From: a virus
Lineage: Duplodnaviria; Heunggongvirae; Uroviricota; Caudoviricetes
DNA length: 6,856 nucleotides
Direction: 5' to 3' (one strand)
IMG/VR virus record: IMGVR_UViG_2675903433_000039
Location: 1-6,856 of that record
Every line of letters begins with the position of its first letter. Position 1 is the first letter of the stretch. Position numbers and translations under genes: made by a program. The notes under the pieces were generated by a model that saw only the letters and a list, made by a program, of their open reading frames with translations, had not been told where the DNA came from and searched no databases. Positions 1 through 6,856 of the stretch are shown here, in pieces.

Positions 1-46
1 AGGTTGCTCCGGGCTATGAAATAGAAAAATGAATCCGTTGAAGCCT
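1..46. other. Host chromosomal DNA flanking the prophage (bacterial arm of the lambda attachment site)
   Basis: Sequence ...gaaatagaaaaatgaatccgttgaagcctgc immediately left of the att core matches my recollection of the E. coli attB left arm. It is not phage-like and lies outside int. Confidence 0.7.
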
Positions 47-60
47 GCTTTTTATACTAA
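47..60. other. attL: attL core (overlap region O) of a lambda-type attachment site
   Basis: gctttttatactaa at 47-60 corresponds to the lambda common core GCTTTTTTATACTAA as I recall it. It is flanked on the left by attB-like DNA and on the right by P'-arm sequence (gttggcattataaaaaagcattgc...), which is the B-O-P' arrangement of attL. The T-run is 5 T here against 6 in my memory of the canonical core. Confidence 0.85.
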
Positions 61-133
61 GTTGGCATTATAAAAAAGCATTGCTTATCAATTTGTTGCA
101 ACGAACAGGTCACTATCAGTCAAAATAAAATCA
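61..133. promoter_or_regulatory. attL P' arm with IHF H' site and three Int arm-type sites
   Basis: tatcaatttgttg at 86-98 fits the IHF consensus WATCAANNNNTTR. Three tandem arm-type Int sites follow: aggtcactat (107-116), cagtcaaaat (117-126), aaatcattat (127-136). The position directly upstream of the int stop is as in lambda. Confidence 0.8.
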
Positions 134-1204
134 TTATTTGATTTCAATTTTGTCCCACTCCCTGCCTCTGTCATCACGATACTGTGATGCCATGGTGTCC
201 GACTTATGCCCGAGAAGATGTTGAGCAAACTTATCGCTTATCTGCTTCTCATAGAGTCTTGCAGACAAACTGCGCAACTCGTGAAAGGTCGGCGGATCCC
301 CTTCGAAGGAAAGACCTGATGCTTTTCGTGCGCGCATAAAATACCTTGATACTGTGCCGGATGAAAGCGGTTCACGATGAGTAGATGCAATTATGGTTTC
401 TCCGCCAAGAATCTCTTTGCATTTATCAAGTGTTTCCTTCATTGATATCCCGAGAGCATCAACATGCAATGTTGTAGGGATGGCAATTTTTACGCCTGTT
501 TTGCTTTGCTCGACATAAAGATATCCATCTACGATATCAGACCACTTCATTTCGCATAAATCACCAACTCGCTGCCCGGTAACAACAGCCAGCTCCATTG
601 CAAGTCTTAGCCAACATGGTGATGATTCTGCTGCTTGATAAATTTTCAGGTATTCGTCAGCCGTAAGTCTTGATCTCCTTACCTCTGATTTTGCTGCGCG
701 AGTGGCAGCGACCGGGTTTGTTGTTATATGGCCTTCAGCTATTGCCTCTCGGAATGCATCGCTCAGTGTTGATCTGATTAACTTGGCTGACGCCGCCTTG
801 CCCTCGTCTATGTATCCACTGAGCATTGCCGCAATTTCTTTTGTGGTGATGTCTTCAAGTGGAGCATCAGGCAGCCCCCTCCTTATTGCTTTAATTTTGC
901 TCATGTAATTTATGAGAGTCTTCTGCTTGATTCCTCTGCTGGCGAGGATTTTTTCGTAGCGATCAAGCCATGAATGTAACGTAACAGAATTATCACTGTT
1001 GATTCTCGCTGTCAGAGGCTTGTGTTTGTGTCCTGAAAATAACTCAATGTTGGCCTGTATTGCTTCAGTGATTGCTATCCTCCTGTCTCGGCCTAATCCA
1101 AACTCTTTACCCGTCCTTGGGTCCCTGTAGCAGTAATATCCATTGTTTCTTATATAAAGATTAGGGGGTAAATCCCGGCGCTCATGACTTCGCCTTCTTC
1201 CCAT
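134..1204 (-). CDS. int: Tyrosine site-specific integrase, lambda Int
   Basis: 356-aa ORF whose translation (MGRRRSHERRDLPPNLYIRNNGYYCYRDPRTGKEF ... HLLGHKSDTMASQYRDDRGREWDKIEIK) matches lambda Int as I recall it, including the C-terminal catalytic region (HxLR ... Y in SQYRDD). Adjacent to attL and overlapping xis by 23 nt as in lambda. Confidence 0.97.
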   Translation of the reverse strand: MGRRRSHERRDLPPNLYIRNNGYYCYRDPRTGKEFGLGRDRRIAITEAIQANIELFSGHKHKPLTARINSDNSVTLHSWLDRYEKILASRGIKQKTLINYMSKIKAIRRGLPDAPLEDITTKEIAAMLSGYIDEGKAASAKLIRSTLSDAFREAIAEGHITTNPVAATRAAKSEVRRSRLTADEYLKIYQAAESSPCWLRLAMELAVVTGQRVGDLCEMKWSDIVDGYLYVEQSKTGVKIAIPTTLHVDALGISMKETLDKCKEILGGETIIASTHREPLSSGTVSRYFMRARKASGLSFEGDPPTFHELRSLSARLYEKQISDKFAQHLLGHKSDTMASQYRDDRGREWDKIEIK

Positions 1205-1400
1205 TTCTGATCCTCTTCAAAAGGCTACCTGTTACTGGTCGATTTAAGTCAACCTTTACCGCTGATTCGTGGAACAGATACTCTCTTCCATCCTTAACCG
1301 GAGGAGGGAATATCCTGCATTCGCGCACCCATCGACGAACTGTTTCAAGGCTTCTTGGGCGTCGCTGGCGTGCATTCCACTCCTGAAGTGTCAAGTACAT
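1182..1400 (-). CDS. xis: Excisionase, lambda Xis
   Basis: 72-aa ORF MYLTLQEWNARQRRPRSLETVRRWVRECRIFPPPVKDGREYLFHESAVKVDLNRPVTGSLLKRIRNGKKAKS matches lambda Xis from memory. Its 3' end overlaps the int start by 23 nt. Confidence 0.95.
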   Translation of the reverse strand: MYLTLQEWNARQRRPRSLETVRRWVRECRIFPPPVKDGREYLFHESAVKVDLNRPVTGSLLKRIRNGKKAKS

Positions 1401-1521
1401 CGCAAAGTCTCCGCAATTACACGCAAGAAAAGCCGCATTGATGCGGCGATGGTAGGTCTGGATATCATTGAGCCATGAACAGGCCTCATCGAGTGTGAGG
1501 CTGTGGTTAGTCCTTTCGTAA

Positions 1522-1719
1522 CTCGCTGATTCTCCTGTAAGTCTCTGGTGCTTTGTTTCCGTGTATCTTCATTTCGGCGCATGGGCTTGTAGCGCGTGTC
1601 ACGATGAAATCGACCGACGCACCCATAACCTCGACAACAAAGACGCCAGACTTTACCACCTCGAAGGCGTGATCAGGACGCAGGCGATACTGCTGAAGGA
1701 GGGGAAGATTAAGTCATGA
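1522..1719 (+). pseudogene. 3' remnant of a truncated nin-region gene upstream of rusA (no credible start codon)
   Basis: An open frame runs from the stop at 1519-1521 to a TGA at 1717-1719 that overlaps the rusA ATG (ATGA coupling). It reads ...VYLHFGAWACSACHDEIDRRTHNLDNKDARLYHLEGVIRTQAILLKEGKIKS*. It has no ATG and no Shine-Dalgarno at its 5' end, consistent with a gene truncated at a deletion or recombination junction. Identity not established. Confidence 0.3.
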
Positions 1720-2078
1720 ACGAATATCAGTTTGTGCTTCCATACCCGCCGTCGGTGAATACCTACTGGCGAAGACGGGGAAGCCAATACTACATCAGCG
1801 ATAAAGGCCAGAAATACCGAAAAGACGTTCAGCAAATCATCCACCAACTCAAGTTAGATATTTTCACCAAATCACGACTCCGCATCAAAGTAATCGCAGA
1901 CGTTCCAGACTCCCGCCGCCGCGACCTAGATAACATCCTGAAGGGTTTACTCGACTCCCTTATCCATGCCGGATTTGCGGAAGACGACGAGCAATTCGAT
2001 GACATTCGCGTAATTCGTGGTGTGAAAGTACCAGGCGGACGGCTTGGAATAAAAATCACCGAACTGGAGAACGCATGA
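1716..2078 (+). CDS. rusA: Holliday junction resolvase RusA (lambdoid nin-region endonuclease)
   Basis: 120-aa ORF with RusA hallmarks shared with E. coli K-12 RusA as I recall it: N-terminal LPYPPSVNTYW (K-12: LPWPPSNNRYY), the RRRDLDN motif with catalytic Asp residues, and C-terminal GGRLGIKITE. Same length as K-12 RusA. Good RBS (aggagg/ggaag) upstream; the stop overlaps the next ATG. Confidence 0.9.
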   Translation: MNEYQFVLPYPPSVNTYWRRRGSQYYISDKGQKYRKDVQQIIHQLKLDIFTKSRLRIKVIADVPDSRRRDLDNILKGLLDSLIHAGFAEDDEQFDDIRVIRGVKVPGGRLGIKITELENA

Positions 2079-2263
2079 ACGCCACAATTCAAACGATACC
2101 AGAGCTTCTTATCCAGACACGAGGCAATCAGACCGAAGTGGCGAGGATGCTTTCCTGCGCAAGAGGAACAGTGCTCAAGTACAACCGAGACAGCAAAGGC
2201 GAGCGTCATGTAATAGTTAACGGCGTCCTGATGGTCAAACAGGGCAAGAGGGGAAGACGATGA
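2075..2263 (+). CDS. ninH: NinH-like small DNA-binding protein (nin region)
   Basis: 62-aa ORF MNATIQTIPELLIQTRGNQTEVARMLSCARGTVLKYNRDSKGERHVIVNGVLMVKQGKRGRR resembles lambda NinH as I recall it (..KTIPDML..YGNQTEVARRL.CSRGTV.KY..D..G..H.IVN.VLMV..). Translationally coupled to rusA (ATGA). The C-terminus diverges from lambda NinH just before the low-GC insertion. Confidence 0.75.
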   Translation: MNATIQTIPELLIQTRGNQTEVARMLSCARGTVLKYNRDSKGERHVIVNGVLMVKQGKRGRR

Positions 2264-2391
2264 GACTCGAAAGCGTAGCTAAATTTCATTCGCCAAAAAG
2301 CCCGATGATGAGCGACTCACTACTGGCCACAGTTTATTGGTTTTCGTAACTGAGTCATTTTATTATTTTATTGCAACTTTTAATCTTTTAT

Positions 2392-2428
2392 AGTGCGAAA
2401 TAAATGGAGCTGGCATTCATTTCGCACT
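2392..2428 (+). terminator. Perfect 10-bp inverted repeat (agtgcgaaat / atttcgcact) with a 17-nt loop, followed by a T-rich tract; possible terminator of rightward nin transcription
   Basis: Arms at 2392-2401 and 2419-2428 are exact reverse complements. ttatgtttttgttgg follows on the plus strand. The loop is long for a canonical intrinsic terminator, hence the low confidence. Confidence 0.3.
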
Positions 2429-2474
2429 TTATGTTTTTGTTGGACTTATGTTATTTTGATTGAATTCAATTCAG

Positions 2475-3434
2475 TTAAAAAAAGAAGGTGATTGCTCCAT
2501 TTATAAATGAATAGTCATCCCCTGTCTTGAATTCTGATGTTACTTTATTAAATGCTAGTGTGAAGGCTACAGGTGCATACCCAATTGTTGCGCCAACTTG
2601 ATATTCATCAACAGTTTTGTTTAGCGATACTGTTGTTTGTTTCGTCTGTATTGTTTTTCCTTCGAGAGTATAGTTGCGATTGACATCTCGTCTTTCCATA
2701 CCTGCAAAAATCTTGTATTTGAATCCGCTTGTATCGGACATATGCATTAAACCACGGGGAGCCAGCAGACCAAAGCCATTATCCGAATTGAAGGTTTTAT
2801 CATTACCAATGGCAATGGTTGCGCCATATGCTACATATTGAAATAAGTTTCCAGTAACAGCAGAAACTTCAGGGTATAATCCAACATTAGCACCTAAAAT
2901 ATCCATACTTGGTGTCATGGATAGCATCCCTTTTACAGTATAACCGTAGCGATTCTCTATTTGATCATCCCATGCATGATATTTTTCTGCCCCAATAATC
3001 TCATGAGCTTTATTTTGTACTTTCTGACCGCCTGCGTCGGGGCCAACAACACCTATGTCAGTACCTAATCGATAGCGAATCCAGTCATTCGCAAGGGAGT
3101 TCCATTCAATACCAGTGTGAGTGTATGCACTAAAAGCTCTGTCTCCAGTTACAGCTGTGTTGTGTCTTTTATTACTGCCTGATGGAGAGTAAATATCTTG
3201 CGCAATATGGAGAGATAATTGGCTCGAGTCTGAGATATCGTGGCTATATCCCAGAAATAAGCCTTGTGAGTAATCATCTCTGTTTTCATGTTTATTGCCA
3301 TAAATATCATTAAGTATTGGTTGAAACTTCCCTGCATCATCATTTGCTAATGATAATGCAAGGCTGTTCGCGATAGCTGAACACGTGGTAAATGACAGAG
3401 CAATAAAGACGCCAGCGATGACACTTTTTTTCAT
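2475..3434 (-). CDS. lpxR: Outer-membrane lipid A 3'-O-deacylase LpxR (beta-barrel, signal peptide); prophage accessory gene
   Basis: 319-aa ORF with an N-terminal signal peptide (MKKSVIAGVFIALSFTTCSAIA) and a C-terminal aromatic ...ITFFF typical of outer-membrane beta-barrels. Length and sequence character match Salmonella LpxR and its E. coli O157 prophage orthologue as I recall them. RBS GGAAG lies 10 nt upstream of the ATG. Low GC relative to the flanking phage genes. Confidence 0.7.
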   Translation of the reverse strand: MKKSVIAGVFIALSFTTCSAIANSLALSLANDDAGKFQPILNDIYGNKHENRDDYSQGLFLGYSHDISDSSQLSLHIAQDIYSPSGSNKRHNTAVTGDRAFSAYTHTGIEWNSLANDWIRYRLGTDIGVVGPDAGGQKVQNKAHEIIGAEKYHAWDDQIENRYGYTVKGMLSMTPSMDILGANVGLYPEVSAVTGNLFQYVAYGATIAIGNDKTFNSDNGFGLLAPRGLMHMSDTSGFKYKIFAGMERRDVNRNYTLEGKTIQTKQTTVSLNKTVDEYQVGATIGYAPVAFTLAFNKVTSEFKTGDDYSFINGAITFFF

Positions 3435-3720
3435 ATGTTATTGTCTTCCTTTTTTTTGAATGGTGCGCGTATTTTACATACATGAGTTTGTAATACAAGG
3501 TGCGTAATCAATATGATGTTTTATAATTGCGTGAGACAATTGATTTATTCGTTTTTTATTGCGGTTTTTATTATCTTTTAATGTAACGGTGTTTTTATTA
3601 AGTGTGTTTGCGTGGTGTTTTATGTTTTTTATAATTTTTATTTTATTAAATTTAAAAGCATTAGTAATGGCTATTCTATATAGCAATATAAGAACTGTTA
3701 CAAAAAAAGGGGGGGCAATT
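3435..3720. promoter_or_regulatory. AT-rich, T-tract-phased (probably intrinsically curved) upstream region of lpxR; likely promoter and silencing region
   Basis: Very AT-rich intergenic DNA with T-runs recurring at roughly helical spacing between about 3550 and 3650. Lies directly upstream of the lpxR start (minus strand) and divergent from the Q-like gene. Confidence 0.3.
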
Positions 3721-3909
3721 ACAGGTAGTTATGGATGATGAGTGAAACAGATATTGGAGAACCGGGGAATGAATGATGTCTGAGTCTTATATATCAGAAC
3801 TCCTTCGCTGTCGCTGGGGGCTCCTGTGCTTATGTCGTTTCCCCGATTCGGTTTTGAACGATTACCGAATGTTGAAGAATTATGCCAAAATATAGAAAGG
3901 ATTTACTGC

Positions 3910-4599
3910 ATGAATACCCAATATTTACAGTATGTTCGTGAGCAACTTATGGCAGCTACTGCTGACTTGAACGGAGCAACGAAAGGCCAGCTCGAAGCCT
4001 GGCAGGAGCATGCACAATTTGATACTGGTACATACAAACGAAAGAAGCCGCGCATTCTGGATGTGGTAACTGGCAAGATGATTACGCTGGATAATACGCC
4101 GACTTCCGGTAAGCAGTCGTACGCAAAAGGTTCATCCATTGCTTTGGTCAGCCCGGTTGAATTCTCAACCTCTTCATGGCGCCGCGCGGTTTTGTCTCTC
4201 GATGAACATCAGAAAGCATGGTTGCTTTGGTGTTACAGCGAAAGCGTTCGATGGGGGCATCAGGTCACCATAACGCAATGGGCATGGAGCGAGTTTAAAG
4301 ATTTGTTAAGTAACAGAAAAATTGCAGGTAAGACACTGGATCGCCTGAAGACGTTAATCTGGCTGGCTGCACAGGATGTGAAGAGCGAACTTGCAGGGCG
4401 TGAGGCCTATGAATACCAGACACTGGCATCATTGGTGGGAGTGACAACAAAAAACTGGTCCGAGACATTTACTGAACGCTGGGTTGCAATGAAGCACATT
4501 TTTCTACAGCTTGATAGTGATGCTTTATTGCTTGTGACGAGAACACGTTCAAAACAAAAGGCAGCATTTTTACAGCAAAATATTGCAAAACTGGATTAA
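3910..4599 (+). CDS. Putative late-gene antiterminator Q (large Q-like family of lambdoid prophages); the longest ORF starts at 3826
   Basis: Located between the nin genes and the lysis cassette, where Q sits in lambdoid phages. The ~230-257 aa size is consistent with the large Q variants annotated in E. coli prophages. The ATG at 3910 has a good RBS (aaagga, 8 nt spacer); the upstream in-frame ATG at 3826 has a weaker one. Assignment is by position and general resemblance, not verified by search. Confidence 0.55.
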   Translation: MNTQYLQYVREQLMAATADLNGATKGQLEAWQEHAQFDTGTYKRKKPRILDVVTGKMITLDNTPTSGKQSYAKGSSIALVSPVEFSTSSWRRAVLSLDEHQKAWLLWCYSESVRWGHQVTITQWAWSEFKDLLSNRKIAGKTLDRLKTLIWLAAQDVKSELAGREAYEYQTLASLVGVTTKNWSETFTERWVAMKHIFLQLDSDALLLVTRTRSKQKAAFLQQNIAKLD

Positions 4600-4647
4600 A
4601 AGCCATATACTTCATGCAAATTTGGTATGTTGTAAAAAATGTATAAA

Positions 4648-4671
4648 CCCGCTGCCGAGTGGGTTTTTTTT
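4648..4671 (+). terminator. Rho-independent terminator-like hairpin ~50 bp downstream of the Q-like gene
   Basis: Stem cccgct (4648-4653) / agtggg (4658-4663) with one G-U pair, loop gccg, followed by a run of 8 T (4664-4671). An A-tract upstream (aaaaaatgtataaa) could make it bidirectional. Confidence 0.5.
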
Positions 4672-4743
4672 ATGCCCTGAGTTGTACTTGTACGGTAAAC
4701 ATGCTGGCTGCTATGTAATAGAGTTTTTTTAGCCTGTAACCTC

Positions 4744-4773
4744 TTGACGGCATTGAATTGCTTTTGTTATGAG
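4744..4773 (+). promoter_or_regulatory. Sigma70-like promoter candidate upstream of the membrane-protein gene (possible late promoter pR' or moron promoter)
   Basis: TTGACG (4744-4749), a 17-18 bp spacer, then TTATGA/TATGAG. The spacer contains ATTGAA at the same position as in lambda pR' (TTGACTtATTGAA...) as I recall it. A tandem TTGTAC TTGTAC repeat at 4682-4693 lies just upstream. Confidence 0.3.
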
Positions 4774-4810
4774 TTGTAAGCCAATGTTATCATCTTGTAT
4801 TGGGGTGGTT

Positions 4811-5527
4811 ATGAAGGATGGTGCGCTGCTCAGGAGTTCTTCACTTTTTATTGCCTACATGGGATGCCTTGGATGGGGGAGTGCTTATTTCTATGGATGG
4901 GGTACTTCTTTTTACTACGGCTTCCCATGGTGGATTGTAGGTGCAGGTGTTGATGATGTTGCCAGAAGTTTATTTTTTGCAGTTATCGTCATTGCTATAT
5001 TTCTTATCGGTTGGGGTATTGGTGTTGTATTCTTTTTCGCAGTGAAAAGAAAACATTCTATGCAAGAGCTAAATGTATTTCGCCTTTATTTTGCTGTGGA
5101 ATTATTGTTTGTGCCGGCAATTATTGAGTTTTCTATATTGAGACAGAAGATTCAGGTACCTCTTTTGCTACTGTCAGCAGCGATTGCGCTGGCGGTTACA
5201 ATTTCGATAAGATCTTATGGGCGATTTTTATCGGTATCATGCTTCTATGATAAGCCATTTATAAAAAAACATTTTTTTGAGATTGTGATGATTGCTTTTG
5301 TGGCATATTTTTGGCTTTTTTCATTTCTGACAGGATATTACAAACCACAGTTTAAGAAAGAATATGAAATGATTAATTATAATGATGGTTGGTATTATGT
5401 TCTTGCTCGTTATGATAATTGTCTGGTTTTGTCTACTTCTTTCAATGCAGGTAGTAAAAGGTTTGTCATTTATCAATCAGCACAAGATAAGAATCTTCAG
5501 GTTGATATTGTAAGGACCAGAATTTAA
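4811..5527 (+). CDS. Uncharacterised integral membrane protein (about five predicted TM helices plus a ~60-aa C-terminal soluble domain); low-GC accessory gene
   Basis: Long ORF (maximal 4769-5527; alternative starts at 4769, 4784 and 4811, with gggg/ggtgg upstream of 4811). Hydrophobic segments include FAVIVIAIFLIGWGIGVVFFFAV, LYFAVELLFVPAIIEFSIL, LLLLSAAIALAVTISI and FFEIVMIAFVAYFWLFSFLTGYY, with an aromatic/Gly-rich N-terminal segment (GWGSAYFYGWGTSFYYGFPWW). Codon usage is AT-rich compared with neighbouring phage genes. No family recognised. Confidence 0.7.
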   Translation: MKDGALLRSSSLFIAYMGCLGWGSAYFYGWGTSFYYGFPWWIVGAGVDDVARSLFFAVIVIAIFLIGWGIGVVFFFAVKRKHSMQELNVFRLYFAVELLFVPAIIEFSILRQKIQVPLLLLSAAIALAVTISIRSYGRFLSVSCFYDKPFIKKHFFEIVMIAFVAYFWLFSFLTGYYKPQFKKEYEMINYNDGWYYVLARYDNCLVLSTSFNAGSKRFVIYQSAQDKNLQVDIVRTRI

Positions 5528-5660
5528 TTGGCTGCATAAATAATATTTTAAGTTGCAAGTTGGCTATTCGTAGGAATAGAACCTTAGGCATGCTGAATGC
5601 GTTTTCTGAACATTGTTTTATAAACTGTGTCTGCTTGCTGTTGTGATCCTGCTTTTAGTG

Positions 5661-5771
5661 ATGGTGATGATGGATTTCACCAGCAGGATAATGTTGGTAC
5701 TGACTGATGGCGCTCTGGTCTGCGGCATTGTGGTATTGCTGTGGCCGATGATGAAAGAACAGAATGAATAA
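5661..5771 (+). CDS. Hypothetical 36-aa hydrophobic micro-protein (MVMMDFTSRIMLVLTDGALVCGIVVLLWPMMKEQNE)
   Basis: Short ORF with one predicted TM segment, ending 3 nt before the -35 of the downstream promoter-like element. It has no obvious Shine-Dalgarno and contains the rare AGG-ATA codon pair, so coding status is uncertain. Confidence 0.2.
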   Translation: MVMMDFTSRIMLVLTDGALVCGIVVLLWPMMKEQNE

Positions 5772-5774
5772 TTC

Positions 5775-5803
5775 TTGACTTTTTTGTTTACTGTTTATTA
5801 AAA
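5775..5803 (+). promoter_or_regulatory. Late-promoter-like element (pR' candidate): TTGACT -35, ~17 bp spacer, A/T-rich -10
   Basis: TTGACT at 5775-5780, then a 17-bp spacer and TTAAAA (or TATTAA with a shorter spacer). An intrinsic terminator lies about 175 nt downstream and the holin start about 410 bp beyond that, a geometry like the lambda pR'-tR'-S arrangement as I recall it. Confidence 0.35.
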
Positions 5804-5957
5804 AATCAACCGCATGGTGAATCCTCCTTGGAGGGGCTAAATGATCGAGTTTTAAGGGCACGTAGCGAGTTCTGTTTGATCATTGCAGAACTTAGCGGGA
5901 GGCGCCATGCGTACATCACTAATGTTATTTCCTTCTATCATTTTCCTTGTGAGTTCT

Positions 5958-5984
5958 GGCTGCGCATGGCGCGGCCTTTTTTTT
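5958..5984 (+). terminator. Rho-independent terminator (tR'-like) in the late leader
   Basis: GC-rich stem ggctgcgc (5958-5965) / gcgcggcc (5969-5976) with one G-U pair and a short loop, followed by 8 consecutive T (5977-5984). Confidence 0.55.
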
Positions 5985-6173
5985 ATGACCTGCCACTGGC
6001 AGATGGTCATCCTGTGATTTGATTCCGGTTCCGGCTTTTTAACTCTGTTCCTGTACACGGGAGAAATTCTATGTCGATTAATCGTTATGATATTGGTTAC
6101 AAGAAGTACCACGTATTGTGTTGAGATAGAAAGCATGGTGCCAGAGGTAAATGCAGCAGCATAATAAAAAAGA

Positions 6174-6213
6174 GCCAGCGCAGAAGAGAACGGGTAAAAG
6201 AGTCTGCGCTGGC
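6174..6213. repeat. Perfect 11-bp inverted repeat (gccagcgcaga / tctgcgctggc) with an 18-nt loop, adjacent to a second small GGGG/CCCC hairpin
   Basis: Arms at 6174-6184 and 6203-6213 are exact reverse complements. On the minus strand the structure is followed by ctcttttttattat, so it could act as a minus-strand terminator. ggggatattcccc follows at 6216-6228. Confidence 0.4.
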
Positions 6214-6329
6214 GTGGGGATATTCCCCGTGGAGAAATGATATGTAACACACATCGGGAACCTTTCTATATAAACATTATCATTATTGTCAATCATAACA
6301 GTCAGGTATTATGACGTTTATGCATCAGG

Positions 6330-6360
6330 GCCATCAGGAATTAACTGGTGGCTTTTTATT
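6330..6360 (+). terminator. Terminator-like hairpin 35 bp upstream of the holin start
   Basis: Stem gccatcag (6330-6337) / ctggtggc (6345-6352) with one G-U pair, loop gaattaa, followed by tttttatt (6353-6360). Confidence 0.45.
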
Positions 6361-6392
6361 GTTGTCAGCTTCCGGATAACGGGAGACGGGGT

Positions 6393-6608
6393 ATGTACCA
6401 GATGGAAAAAATAACAACAGGTGTGTCATACACCACGTCAGCGGTGGGGACGGGATACTGGCTACTGCAGTTGCTGGACAAAGTCTCCCCATCCCAGTGG
6501 GTGGCAATAGGCGTATTGGGTAGCCTGGTGTTTGGCTTGCTGACGTATCTGACAAACCTTTATTTCAAGATTAAAGAAGATAAGCGTAAGGCTGCGAGAG
6601 GTGAATAA
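6393..6608 (+). CDS. Phage-21-type holin (pinholin, S21/EssD family) with dual-start motif
   Basis: Translation [71 protein letters not shown] closely resembles S21/EssD as I recall them (..[44 protein letters not shown]). RBS gggaga upstream. Met1 and Met4 form the holin/antiholin dual start. The ORF track extends the frame upstream to 6348, but that start has no RBS. Confidence 0.92.
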
Positions 6609-6856
6609 TGTCGCCATCATTACGCAAGGCTGTTGCTGCTGCTATTGGTGGTGGGGCTGTTGCCATAGCGTCTGTGCTCATCACTGGTCCGAGTGGTGAC
6701 GATGGCCTGGAAGGTGTCAGCTACATACCATACGAAGATATCGTTGGCGTATGGACTGTATGTCACGGACACACCGGAAAAGACATCATTCCCGGTAAAA
6801 CGTATACCAAAGCAGAATGCAAAGCACTCTTGAATAAAGACCTTGCCACTGTCGCC
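6608..6856 (+). CDS. SAR endolysin (phage-21 R-type lysozyme), 5' partial; continues past the window end
   Basis: The ATG at 6608 overlaps the holin stop (TAATG). Translation [83 protein letters not shown] matches the N-terminal signal-anchor-release domain and start of the lysozyme domain of R21/RrrD as I recall them. Open to the end of the window. Confidence 0.9.

Follow-up and report, generated by a model that had tools for sequence, protein, structure and literature searches.

We analysed a 6,856-nucleotide stretch of viral (Caudoviricetes) DNA, positions 1 to 6,856 of IMG/VR record IMGVR_UViG_2675903433_000039 (hereafter the window), in which an AT-rich gene for a putative membrane protein lies between the antiterminator gene Q and the lysis genes of a lambdoid prophage. 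A preliminary description, made from the letters alone, had noticed a protein of about 240 residues at this position. The gene encodes a protein of 238 residues belonging to the TfpB/STM1630 family (PF27470; PHROG 1521; RefSeq 'STM1630 family protein'), and it is preceded by a phage-82-type Q, a promoter and terminator resembling pR' and tR', and a conserved promoter-like element (Table 1).

An open reading frame (ORF) runs uninterrupted on the plus strand from 4769 to 5527 and would give 252 residues from its first ATG. By our own calculation, with about 7% of random codons being stops at 36% G+C, 252 stop-free codons have a probability of about 1e-8 by chance. Pairwise comparison with nine diverged homologues gave dN/dS values of 0.12-0.24. 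Thus, this is a real gene under purifying selection. Frame-shifted variants are few (among them homologue clusters P0005, P0014, P0016, P0021 and P0066) and their clusters hold 1 to 53 member sequences, against 545 in the intact cluster P0001. The preliminary description had named a well-characterised family and an unconserved reading frame as findings that would count against it; neither was encountered, the ORF being conserved and mostly intact. The coding sequence has a G+C content of 36.1%, compared with 44-48% in sliding windows over Q and 48-51% over the holin region, in agreement with the AT-rich composition described earlier.

In nine genera, among them Escherichia, Citrobacter, Cronobacter, Klebsiella, Enterobacter, Salmonella and Yersinia, the homologues are 236-238 residues long and have start codons that align with ATG 4811. 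The 2026 RefSeq record WP_001299184.1 ('STM1630 family protein') is 717 bp in length and uses the same codon to give 238 residues. On comparison of these sequences, the longer versions from ATG 4769 (252 residues) or ATG 4784 (247 residues; older RefSeq and phage 434 records) probably do not represent the real start. ATG 4769 falls within the -10-like part of the upstream promoter-like motif.

The match to PHROG 1521 was full length (E = 2e-154, profile positions 1-222 of 222), and the PF27470 label 'TfpB' was carried by all 103 homologues, including the identical sequences P0001 and P0004. Both PHROG 1521 and PF27470 are families of unknown function. Scans of the target against Pfam-A and NCBIfam gave no meaningful match, the copies searched lacking the PF27470 and STM1630-family models. 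The family is small: an exhaustive profile search of 1.84 billion proteins returned 73 representatives at 50% identity, with a range reaching the Neisseriaceae and Pasteurellaceae. The gene and its family are therefore already catalogued, contrary to the view that the protein could be placed in no family and was undescribed, and the function of every member is still unassigned. Our literature search found no paper mentioning the phage or Escherichia coli gene. The identity of the gene, its family and the cassette in which it resides we regard as nearly certain.

The protein is 100% identical to that of phage 434 gene 68 (CPT_434_68, 'putative membrane protein', UMO75332.1) and to RefSeq WP_001299184.1/WP_001302581.1. 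Phage 434 also shares with the window the order lpxR, ylcG, Q82-like Q, terminator, target, DUF3927/TciB; it differs in its annotated start and in possessing a 1.85-kb SASA esterase gene downstream that has been deleted in the window. Phage 2B8 carries a copy of 98% identity, and these are the two phages named among the 3 of 50,697 phage records with a family member. In complete E. coli genomes the gene is far more frequent, being present at any identity in 692 of 5426 (about 13%) and at 99% identity or above in 655; the 20 genomes listed are all of serogroup O26/O103 or are clinical and bovine isolates. Scans of IMG/VR prophages for TfpB and LpxR returned mostly near-identical copies, which consequently do not count as independent evidence, and a scan of genome contigs yielded only 6 loci.

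In lambdoid phages, Q is followed by the late promoter pR' and then by the terminator tR'. In the window, a pR'-like promoter overlapping the end of Q is positioned directly upstream of a tR'-type intrinsic terminator. Since this is the lambdoid layout, we infer by analogy that 4583-4611 is pR' and 4645-4674 is tR'. The terminator folds with -16.5 kcal/mol (z = -2.1), the phage 434 record also annotates a terminator here, and the stem is present at a distinct prophage locus (L104) with one G.U-to-G-C difference. Identity between the window and prophages with a lambda-type Q (PF03589) begins at 4667, inside the tR' T-tract, and extends through to the holin. Thus, the cassette starts right after tR'.

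The segment 4612-4674 (plus strand) would be transcribed from pR' to tR' as an RNA of approximately 55-60 nucleotides, the positional equivalent of lambda 6S RNA and of the small RNA (sRNA) StxS of Shiga toxin (Stx) phages. A -10-like TATGTT is situated about 9-14 nucleotides into this predicted transcript, which we take to recall the sigma-70-dependent pause element of phage 82.

Downstream of the tR'-type terminator lies the promoter-like element, comprising CTTGACG (with a -35-like TTGACG at 4744-4749), an 18-nucleotide spacer and an extended -10-like TGT-TATGAG at 4765-4773. Across 3.9 Mb of fetched loci, the motif CTTGAC-N16-TGTTATG was found only at -68/-69 of TfpB starts. It occurs in three lineages, namely the window/434 type, plasmids of enterotoxigenic E. 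coli (ETEC) and L104-type prophages, the proteins of which are 55-59% identical; one motif-bearing lineage is a plasmid without Q upstream. The element had been pointed out in the preliminary description and, going by its conservation, is probably the gene's own promoter. The 'CII binding sites' of the phage 434 record proved to be consensus matches only, their second half-site not being conserved in an ETEC plasmid locus (L095) or in L104.

No terminator-like site was detected by the terminator scan in 5527-5957, and the fold of the 90 nucleotides after the stop (5525-5615) is as weak as that of shuffled sequence (z = -0.02). A strong terminator is first encountered at 5958-5984, past the DUF3927 gene and an STnc100-like element. 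The target is therefore probably co-transcribed with the DUF3927 gene. The terminator-like hairpins said to bracket the gene do not do so: the upstream one is the tR'-type terminator, which follows Q and precedes the promoter-like element, and the downstream one is not reached until 5958-5984. The designation as a moron holds in part. The gene is low-GC cargo of the Q-S interval (36.1% against 44-51% in its flanks), is found outside phages, and is present in L104-type late regions (Q, TfpB, 65-residue ORF, methyltransferase) and absent from the similar L108-type junction (Q, 65-residue ORF, methyltransferase). A terminator of its own directly downstream was not found.

Table 1. Features of the window around the TfpB/STM1630-family gene.
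Feature	Position	Strand	Evidence
int	134-1204	-	ORF list and Pfam scan
xis	1182-1400	-	ORF list and Pfam scan
rusA	1716-2078		ORF list and Pfam scan
ninH	2075-2263		ORF list and Pfam scan
lpxR, lipid A 3'-O-deacylase	2475-3434	-	Pfam PF09982, E = 7e-40
Q antiterminator, phage-82 type	3910-4599	+	Pfam PF06323, E = 2e-91; 690 bp 'Q82-like' in RefSeq and phage 434
pR'-like late promoter (TTGCAA, 17 nt, TATACT)	4583-4611	+	Consensus scan, 9/12; overlaps end of Q
tR'-type intrinsic terminator (9-bp stem and T-run)	4645-4674	+	Terminator scan
Promoter-like element	4743-4773	+	Conserved motif, 68 nt before ATG 4811
TfpB/STM1630-family membrane protein, 238 residues	4811-5527 (including stop)	+	ORF, homologues, RefSeq, PHROG 1521
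DUF3927 / 'TciB-like' membrane protein, 52 residues	5613-5771	+	Pfam PF13064, E = 3e-14; PHROG 1470
STnc100/PasD-like sRNA element	5782-5987	+	Rfam RF02076
Holin, P21-type class II, complete	6402-6608		Pfam and RefSeq

Recurrence at the Q-S junction, which the preliminary description had raised, was borne out. The gene comes first after Q whichever of three unrelated families Q belongs to, these being PF06323 (window and L104), PF03589 (prophage L019) and PF06530 (Yersinia). A further arrangement was seen in a group of E. coli prophages (L108-L110, approximately positions 2260-9800), whereby Q is followed by a 65-residue ORF resembling a helix-turn-helix protein, an N6/N4 methyltransferase gene, tRNA genes, TfpB, lpxR, a small ORF and nanS-p. 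In Stx phages, stx occupies the Q-S interval, either downstream of Q/pR'/tR' or after tRNA genes. The L108-L110 late region is thus Stx-phage-like, with TfpB and lpxR in the position of stx. The target shares with stxAB a cargo slot upstream of nanS-p and holin, one that permits an own promoter plus Q-dependent read-through. The resemblance ends there: the two have no relation in sequence or function, the target being an integral membrane protein and stx encoding a secreted AB5 toxin. A precomputed PmrD label on the small ORF beside lpxR in L109 was not reproduced by a Pfam scan.

The N-terminal segment of the protein is rich in aromatic residues and glycine (AYMGCLGWGSAYFYGWGTSFYYGFPWW), as had been described, and constitutes the best-conserved part of the family, with column identities of 0.86-0.89 and the consensus AYMGCLGWGSAYFYGWGxSFYYGFPWW..AG.DD.ARSL. 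An initial AlphaFold2 model that drew on 30 close homologues scored poorly (pLDDT 62), and inclusion of distant members from the exhaustive profile search raised the score of the final model to a pLDDT of 79.3, with a pTM of 0.71. This model contains five long helices (residues 10-36, 47-79, 84-111, 116-137 and 155-181) followed by a five-strand beta domain (184-235), which corresponds to the C-terminal soluble domain proposed previously. Alignments spanning the Enterobacteriaceae, Neisseriaceae and Pasteurellaceae (proteins of about 236-250 residues) define a common architecture, all of which is found in the target: an aromatic/glycine helix 1, the motif ARSL opening helix 2, a total of five helices, and a beta domain with YYxL...ILS at the C-terminus.

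Helix 1 is weakly hydrophobic, all 19-residue Kyte-Doolittle windows in 11-36 being at or below 1.6. Thus, although the size and five helices given in the preliminary description agree with the model, the number of transmembrane segments is a prediction only. Lysine and arginine are frequent in the loops 79-86 (3.0 per sequence) and 137-155 (3.3 per sequence) and lacking in loop 37-48. On account of this distribution, we predict a cytoplasmic N-terminus, five membrane spans and a periplasmic C-terminal beta domain of approximately 55 residues. The near-invariant aromatic/glycine helix-loop-helix (residues 11-57) is likewise predicted to lie at the periplasmic face. The invariant residues of the family alignment, W22, Y26, W30, D48 and R52 among them, form no catalytic-looking set.

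Foldseek searches with the model returned nothing at E <= 0.001 from either the PDB or BFVD (viral structures), while above that threshold the C-terminal domain showed weak similarity to SH3/Sm-like barrels in the PDB. Sequence searches of the PDB, using the single sequence and a profile, gave no meaningful match. Individual Pfam scans of 48 homologues at E <= 5 produced noise, the sole recurrent hint being bPH_10 (4 members, best E = 0.045).

The relative for which published phenotypes are available is from Salmonella. The homologue P0075 adjoins sseJ, its gene is 717 bp long, and the published primer for deletion of STM1630 encodes NSSMLLAYLGGLGWG, which is residues 9-23 of P0075. P0075 is therefore STM1630 (SL1344_1560). 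It shares with the target the PF27470 label, a length of 238 residues, the same architecture, 46% sequence identity and a setting of AT-rich foreign DNA, in this case among virulence genes. It differs in being chromosomal, between sseJ and steB with no prophage, and in having another promoter, about 200 nucleotides further upstream. Additionally, it is followed only by a 41-residue ORF that has no Pfam match, and a DUF3927 gene was not found there.

H-NS binds STM1630, which possesses a -10 element of its own and is expressed within macrophages and in medium inducing Salmonella pathogenicity island 2 (SPI-2; InSPI2) (PMC6785131 S1 Text). In a regulatory network it groups with SPI-2 and PhoP-type genes (PMC2639726). 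It is absent from S. Typhi, and in all strains of sequence type 313 (ST313) tested it is silenced by two single-nucleotide changes in the promoter that destroy the -10 element (PMC6785131 S1 Text). Mutants are described as attenuated in calves and chickens (Morgan et al. 2004, as cited in PMC6785131 S1 Text), a clean deletion in strain 4/74 replicated more in macrophages (PMC6785131 S1 Text), and an STM1630 mutant was hypermotile in a screen (PMC4219756). These phenotypes cannot be assumed for the phage gene.

Outside phages, family members were found in a variety of neighbourhoods. On ETEC plasmids (L095-L099) the gene is divergent from eltAB, 866 bp away, and near the gene for STb. On the Shigella plasmid pINV it lies between spa40 and virA (135269-135985 in pWR501, L170), and 106 Shigella plasmids carry a family member. 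In the Citrobacter rodentium chromosome it directly adjoins lpxR, and on plasmid-like contigs of E. coli it accompanies Rep3 and insertion sequence elements. The genes of Neisseriaceae and Pasteurellaceae stand alone among housekeeping genes, with no conserved neighbour and no pilin gene. Occurrence on plasmids and chromosomes is as expected of a moron serving the cell.

The preliminary description had suggested envelope modification alongside lpxR. We found the two genes together in three arrangements: lpxR(-) ylcG Q TfpB(+) in the window and phage 434, TfpB(+) lpxR(-) in L108-L110, and adjacent lpxR(-) TfpB(+) in C. rodentium. Between these arrangements the LpxR proteins are 71, about 72 and 77% identical, in parallel with 68, 66 and 71% for TfpB. 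Because the identities track one another, long co-residence of lpxR and TfpB is suggested. The target may also be linked in function to the remodelling of lipid A by LpxR.

We favour the explanation that the target is a cargo gene of the post-Q slot and that its product is an envelope factor, and assign this explanation as a whole a probability of roughly 45%. In a lysogen, the gene would be transcribed from its own promoter-like element at -68, and following induction Q-modified polymerase would read through tR' into it. The periplasm-facing motif and the beta domain may bind a conserved partner in the envelope, either lipid or protein. The protein would serve the bacterial cell as it colonises the host, with no part in lysis or in the virion. 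The colonisation role is proposed because STM1630 is H-NS-bound, has its own promoter, is expressed under SPI-2-inducing conditions and in macrophages, and its loss alters the outcome of infection. Taken by itself, the functional part, namely that the protein is a non-enzymatic factor of the cell envelope with a role in colonising bacteria, is tentative and somewhat doubtful. The earlier judgement that the gene is cargo-like and its function unknown stands.

Several considerations weigh against this explanation. Expression of the phage/E. coli gene in the lysogen is a prediction. Judged against the consensus, the promoter-like element is weak: its -10, TATGAG, lacks the final T, and the generic consensus scan missed this pair of hexamers and gave an overlapping weaker one at 4764-4793. 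A position in the late operon would also fit a role in the lytic cycle. Identity to the Salmonella protein is only 46%, and the phenotypes described for the latter are modest and in part conflict with one another; hypermotility did not feature in the detailed analyses of a follow-up study (PMC4534456). Recurrence at virulence loci may reflect clustering of AT-rich, H-NS-silenced foreign DNA, and the non-enteric homologues are without envelope-related neighbours. Furthermore, 41 of the 71 IMG/VR loci with an identical TfpB and enough upstream sequence lack both lpxR (within 8 kb) and the 82-type Q, while a few lpxR loci are without TfpB. A strict linkage with lpxR was consequently rejected; the three arrangements and the parallel divergence lend some support to a loose one. 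A motility role in Salmonella was also set aside as weakly supported, the screen phenotype not having been carried into the later detailed study.

Among the alternatives, an inner-membrane protein of superinfection exclusion or anti-phage defence, blocking DNA entry or another early step, survives best and is nevertheless unlikely. It would accommodate a single AT-rich gene that stands alone, moves horizontally and turns up in many unrelated neighbourhoods, a predicted inner-membrane location with a periplasmic domain, and prophage cargo with its own promoter-like element; a conserved membrane protein of the host could be the target of the strongly conserved motif facing the periplasm. Yet no family was matched at E <= 1 among the 5027 models of PADLOC-DB v2.0.0, and nothing was found in support of the abortive infection that the preliminary description had also entertained. 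Classical sie and rex genes reside in the immunity or early-left region, whereas the target is part of the late operon. SPI-2 conditions and macrophages induce the Salmonella orthologue, which has infection phenotypes rather than known phage phenotypes, and only 3 of the 50,697 phage records contain a family member.

A more ambitious form of the envelope hypothesis is less probable again. Here the family would be a hitherto overlooked class of horizontally mobile inner-membrane proteins that modulate the Gram-negative envelope and that enteric pathogens co-acquire with toxins, effectors and genes for lipid A remodelling, working with or on LpxR-type deacylation of lipid A to tune immune recognition and the delivery of toxins or effectors. 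Such a protein might activate latent LpxR, handle its products or drive vesiculation.

A membrane function late in the lytic cycle, expressed by Q read-through alone and concerned with lysis timing, a block to re-adsorption or cargo release, we consider improbable. The position of the gene speaks for it: whichever of the three Q families is present, the gene is the first to follow Q/pR'/tR', it precedes the holin-endolysin-spanin cassette, and its cassette boundary is inside the tR' T-tract. However, homologues in Salmonella, Citrobacter, Neisseriaceae, Pasteurellaceae and on plasmids have no phage or lysis genes nearby, many lambdoid phages are without the gene, and up to 3 kb of other cargo can intervene before the holin. 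The conserved promoter-like motif lies downstream of tR', and the window contains a separate, complete class II holin. Nor does the protein resemble a member of the lysis cassette, since it has 238 residues (compared with fewer than 150) and the holin is 0.9 kb away here and about 3 kb away in phage 434.

A type IV pilus accessory protein akin to TfpY/FimB-like proteins is very improbable. The name TfpB itself, which one E. coli record repeats as 'protein tfpB', points in that direction; it presumably derives from an ORF of the Moraxella bovis pilin inversion region. Members also occur in Neisseria and the Pasteurellaceae, which are rich in type IV pili. Compared by description, TfpY-like proteins are similar in size (235-245 residues), and have a cytoplasmic N-terminus, N-terminal membrane helices, a periplasmic beta-rich C-terminal domain and an apparently non-enzymatic nature (PMC11841053). 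However, they possess three helices and a larger mixed alpha/beta domain in place of five helices and a five-strand domain, and are always encoded beside a pilin gene, and the same paper mentions neither TfpB nor Moraxella (PMC11841053). None of the approximately 15 distinct TfpB neighbourhoods examined contains a pilin gene.

Finally, a decaying hitch-hiker with no present function is scarcely credible: the window is a defective prophage with nanS-p deleted, a few frame-shifted variants exist in databases and the Salmonella ST313 copy is silenced (PMC6785131 S1 Text), but the ORF is intact and 100% identical in hundreds of genomes and in the viable phage 434, its dN/dS values are low (above) and intact clusters far outnumber frame-shifted ones.

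The links made here turn an anonymous ORF into a candidate envelope or host-interaction factor that can be tested, and tie a gene of the classical phage 434 to Salmonella STM1630, for which infection phenotypes are described. They also bring out a conserved promoter-like element, a motif at the predicted periplasmic face, and a recurring though loose association with lpxR. The slot it occupies is among the most consequential in lambdoid prophages, being that which carries stx, and its relatives stand beside the heat-labile toxin genes of ETEC, bordering the entry region on Shigella pINV, and beside sseJ and lpxR. Four new leads are the most useful: the equation with STM1630, the conserved -68 element, the constant position behind three Q families in the stx slot, and the recurrent neighbourhoods of toxin, effector and lipid A genes. 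Even if the gene merely rides along, its start codon has been corrected and the supposed bracketing hairpin attributed to tR'.

The window as a whole is the remnant of a lambdoid prophage. The immunity and replication region is entirely gone, and int and xis directly adjoin genes of the nin region (a DUF1364-like ORF, rusA and ninH) at 134-1720; the prophage is therefore defective. Coverage of the window by any one complete E. coli genome does not exceed 88%. The gap between ninH and lpxR (2263-2474) contains the N-terminal remnant of a lambda-type Q, labelled as a partial antitermination protein in RefSeq and phage 434, which suggests that an lpxR-ylcG-Q82 module recombined into a lambda-type Q.

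The sialate esterase gene nanS-p (SASA/DUF6645, 1.85 kb), located between the DUF3927 gene and the holin gene in phage 434 and strain E2865, is missing from the window at approximately 5990-6340. The same nanS-p-less junction was observed in the IMG/VR prophages L019, L022 and L030, and the deletion is thus a circulating variant rather than an artefact. A weak Esr41-like match (32 bits; gathering score 102) is located on the minus strand at 6164-6253.

The DUF3927 gene follows an identical TfpB gene in 79 of 80 IMG/VR loci and was absent after TfpB in the other lineages examined. An obligate partnership was rejected accordingly, the linkage existing only within the identical lineage. In PHROGs the DUF3927 protein bears the label 'TciB-like inhibition of cell division or resistance to colicin', which goes back to tciB of phage P1 and for which we know of no experimental backing.

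The element at 5782-5987 is a full-length match to RF02076 (37.7 bits, below the gathering score of 47; E = 1.3e-5) and ends in the terminator at 5958-5984. In enteropathogenic E. coli, the Hfq-bound sRNAs PasD1 and PasD2 are reported to be STnc100 relatives encoded near Q and LpxR (bioRxiv 10.64898/2026.05.13.724894). The phage 434 record annotates a coding sequence, CPT_434_70 ('putative membrane protein'), over this sRNA-like stretch, and CPT_434_70 may really be the sRNA.

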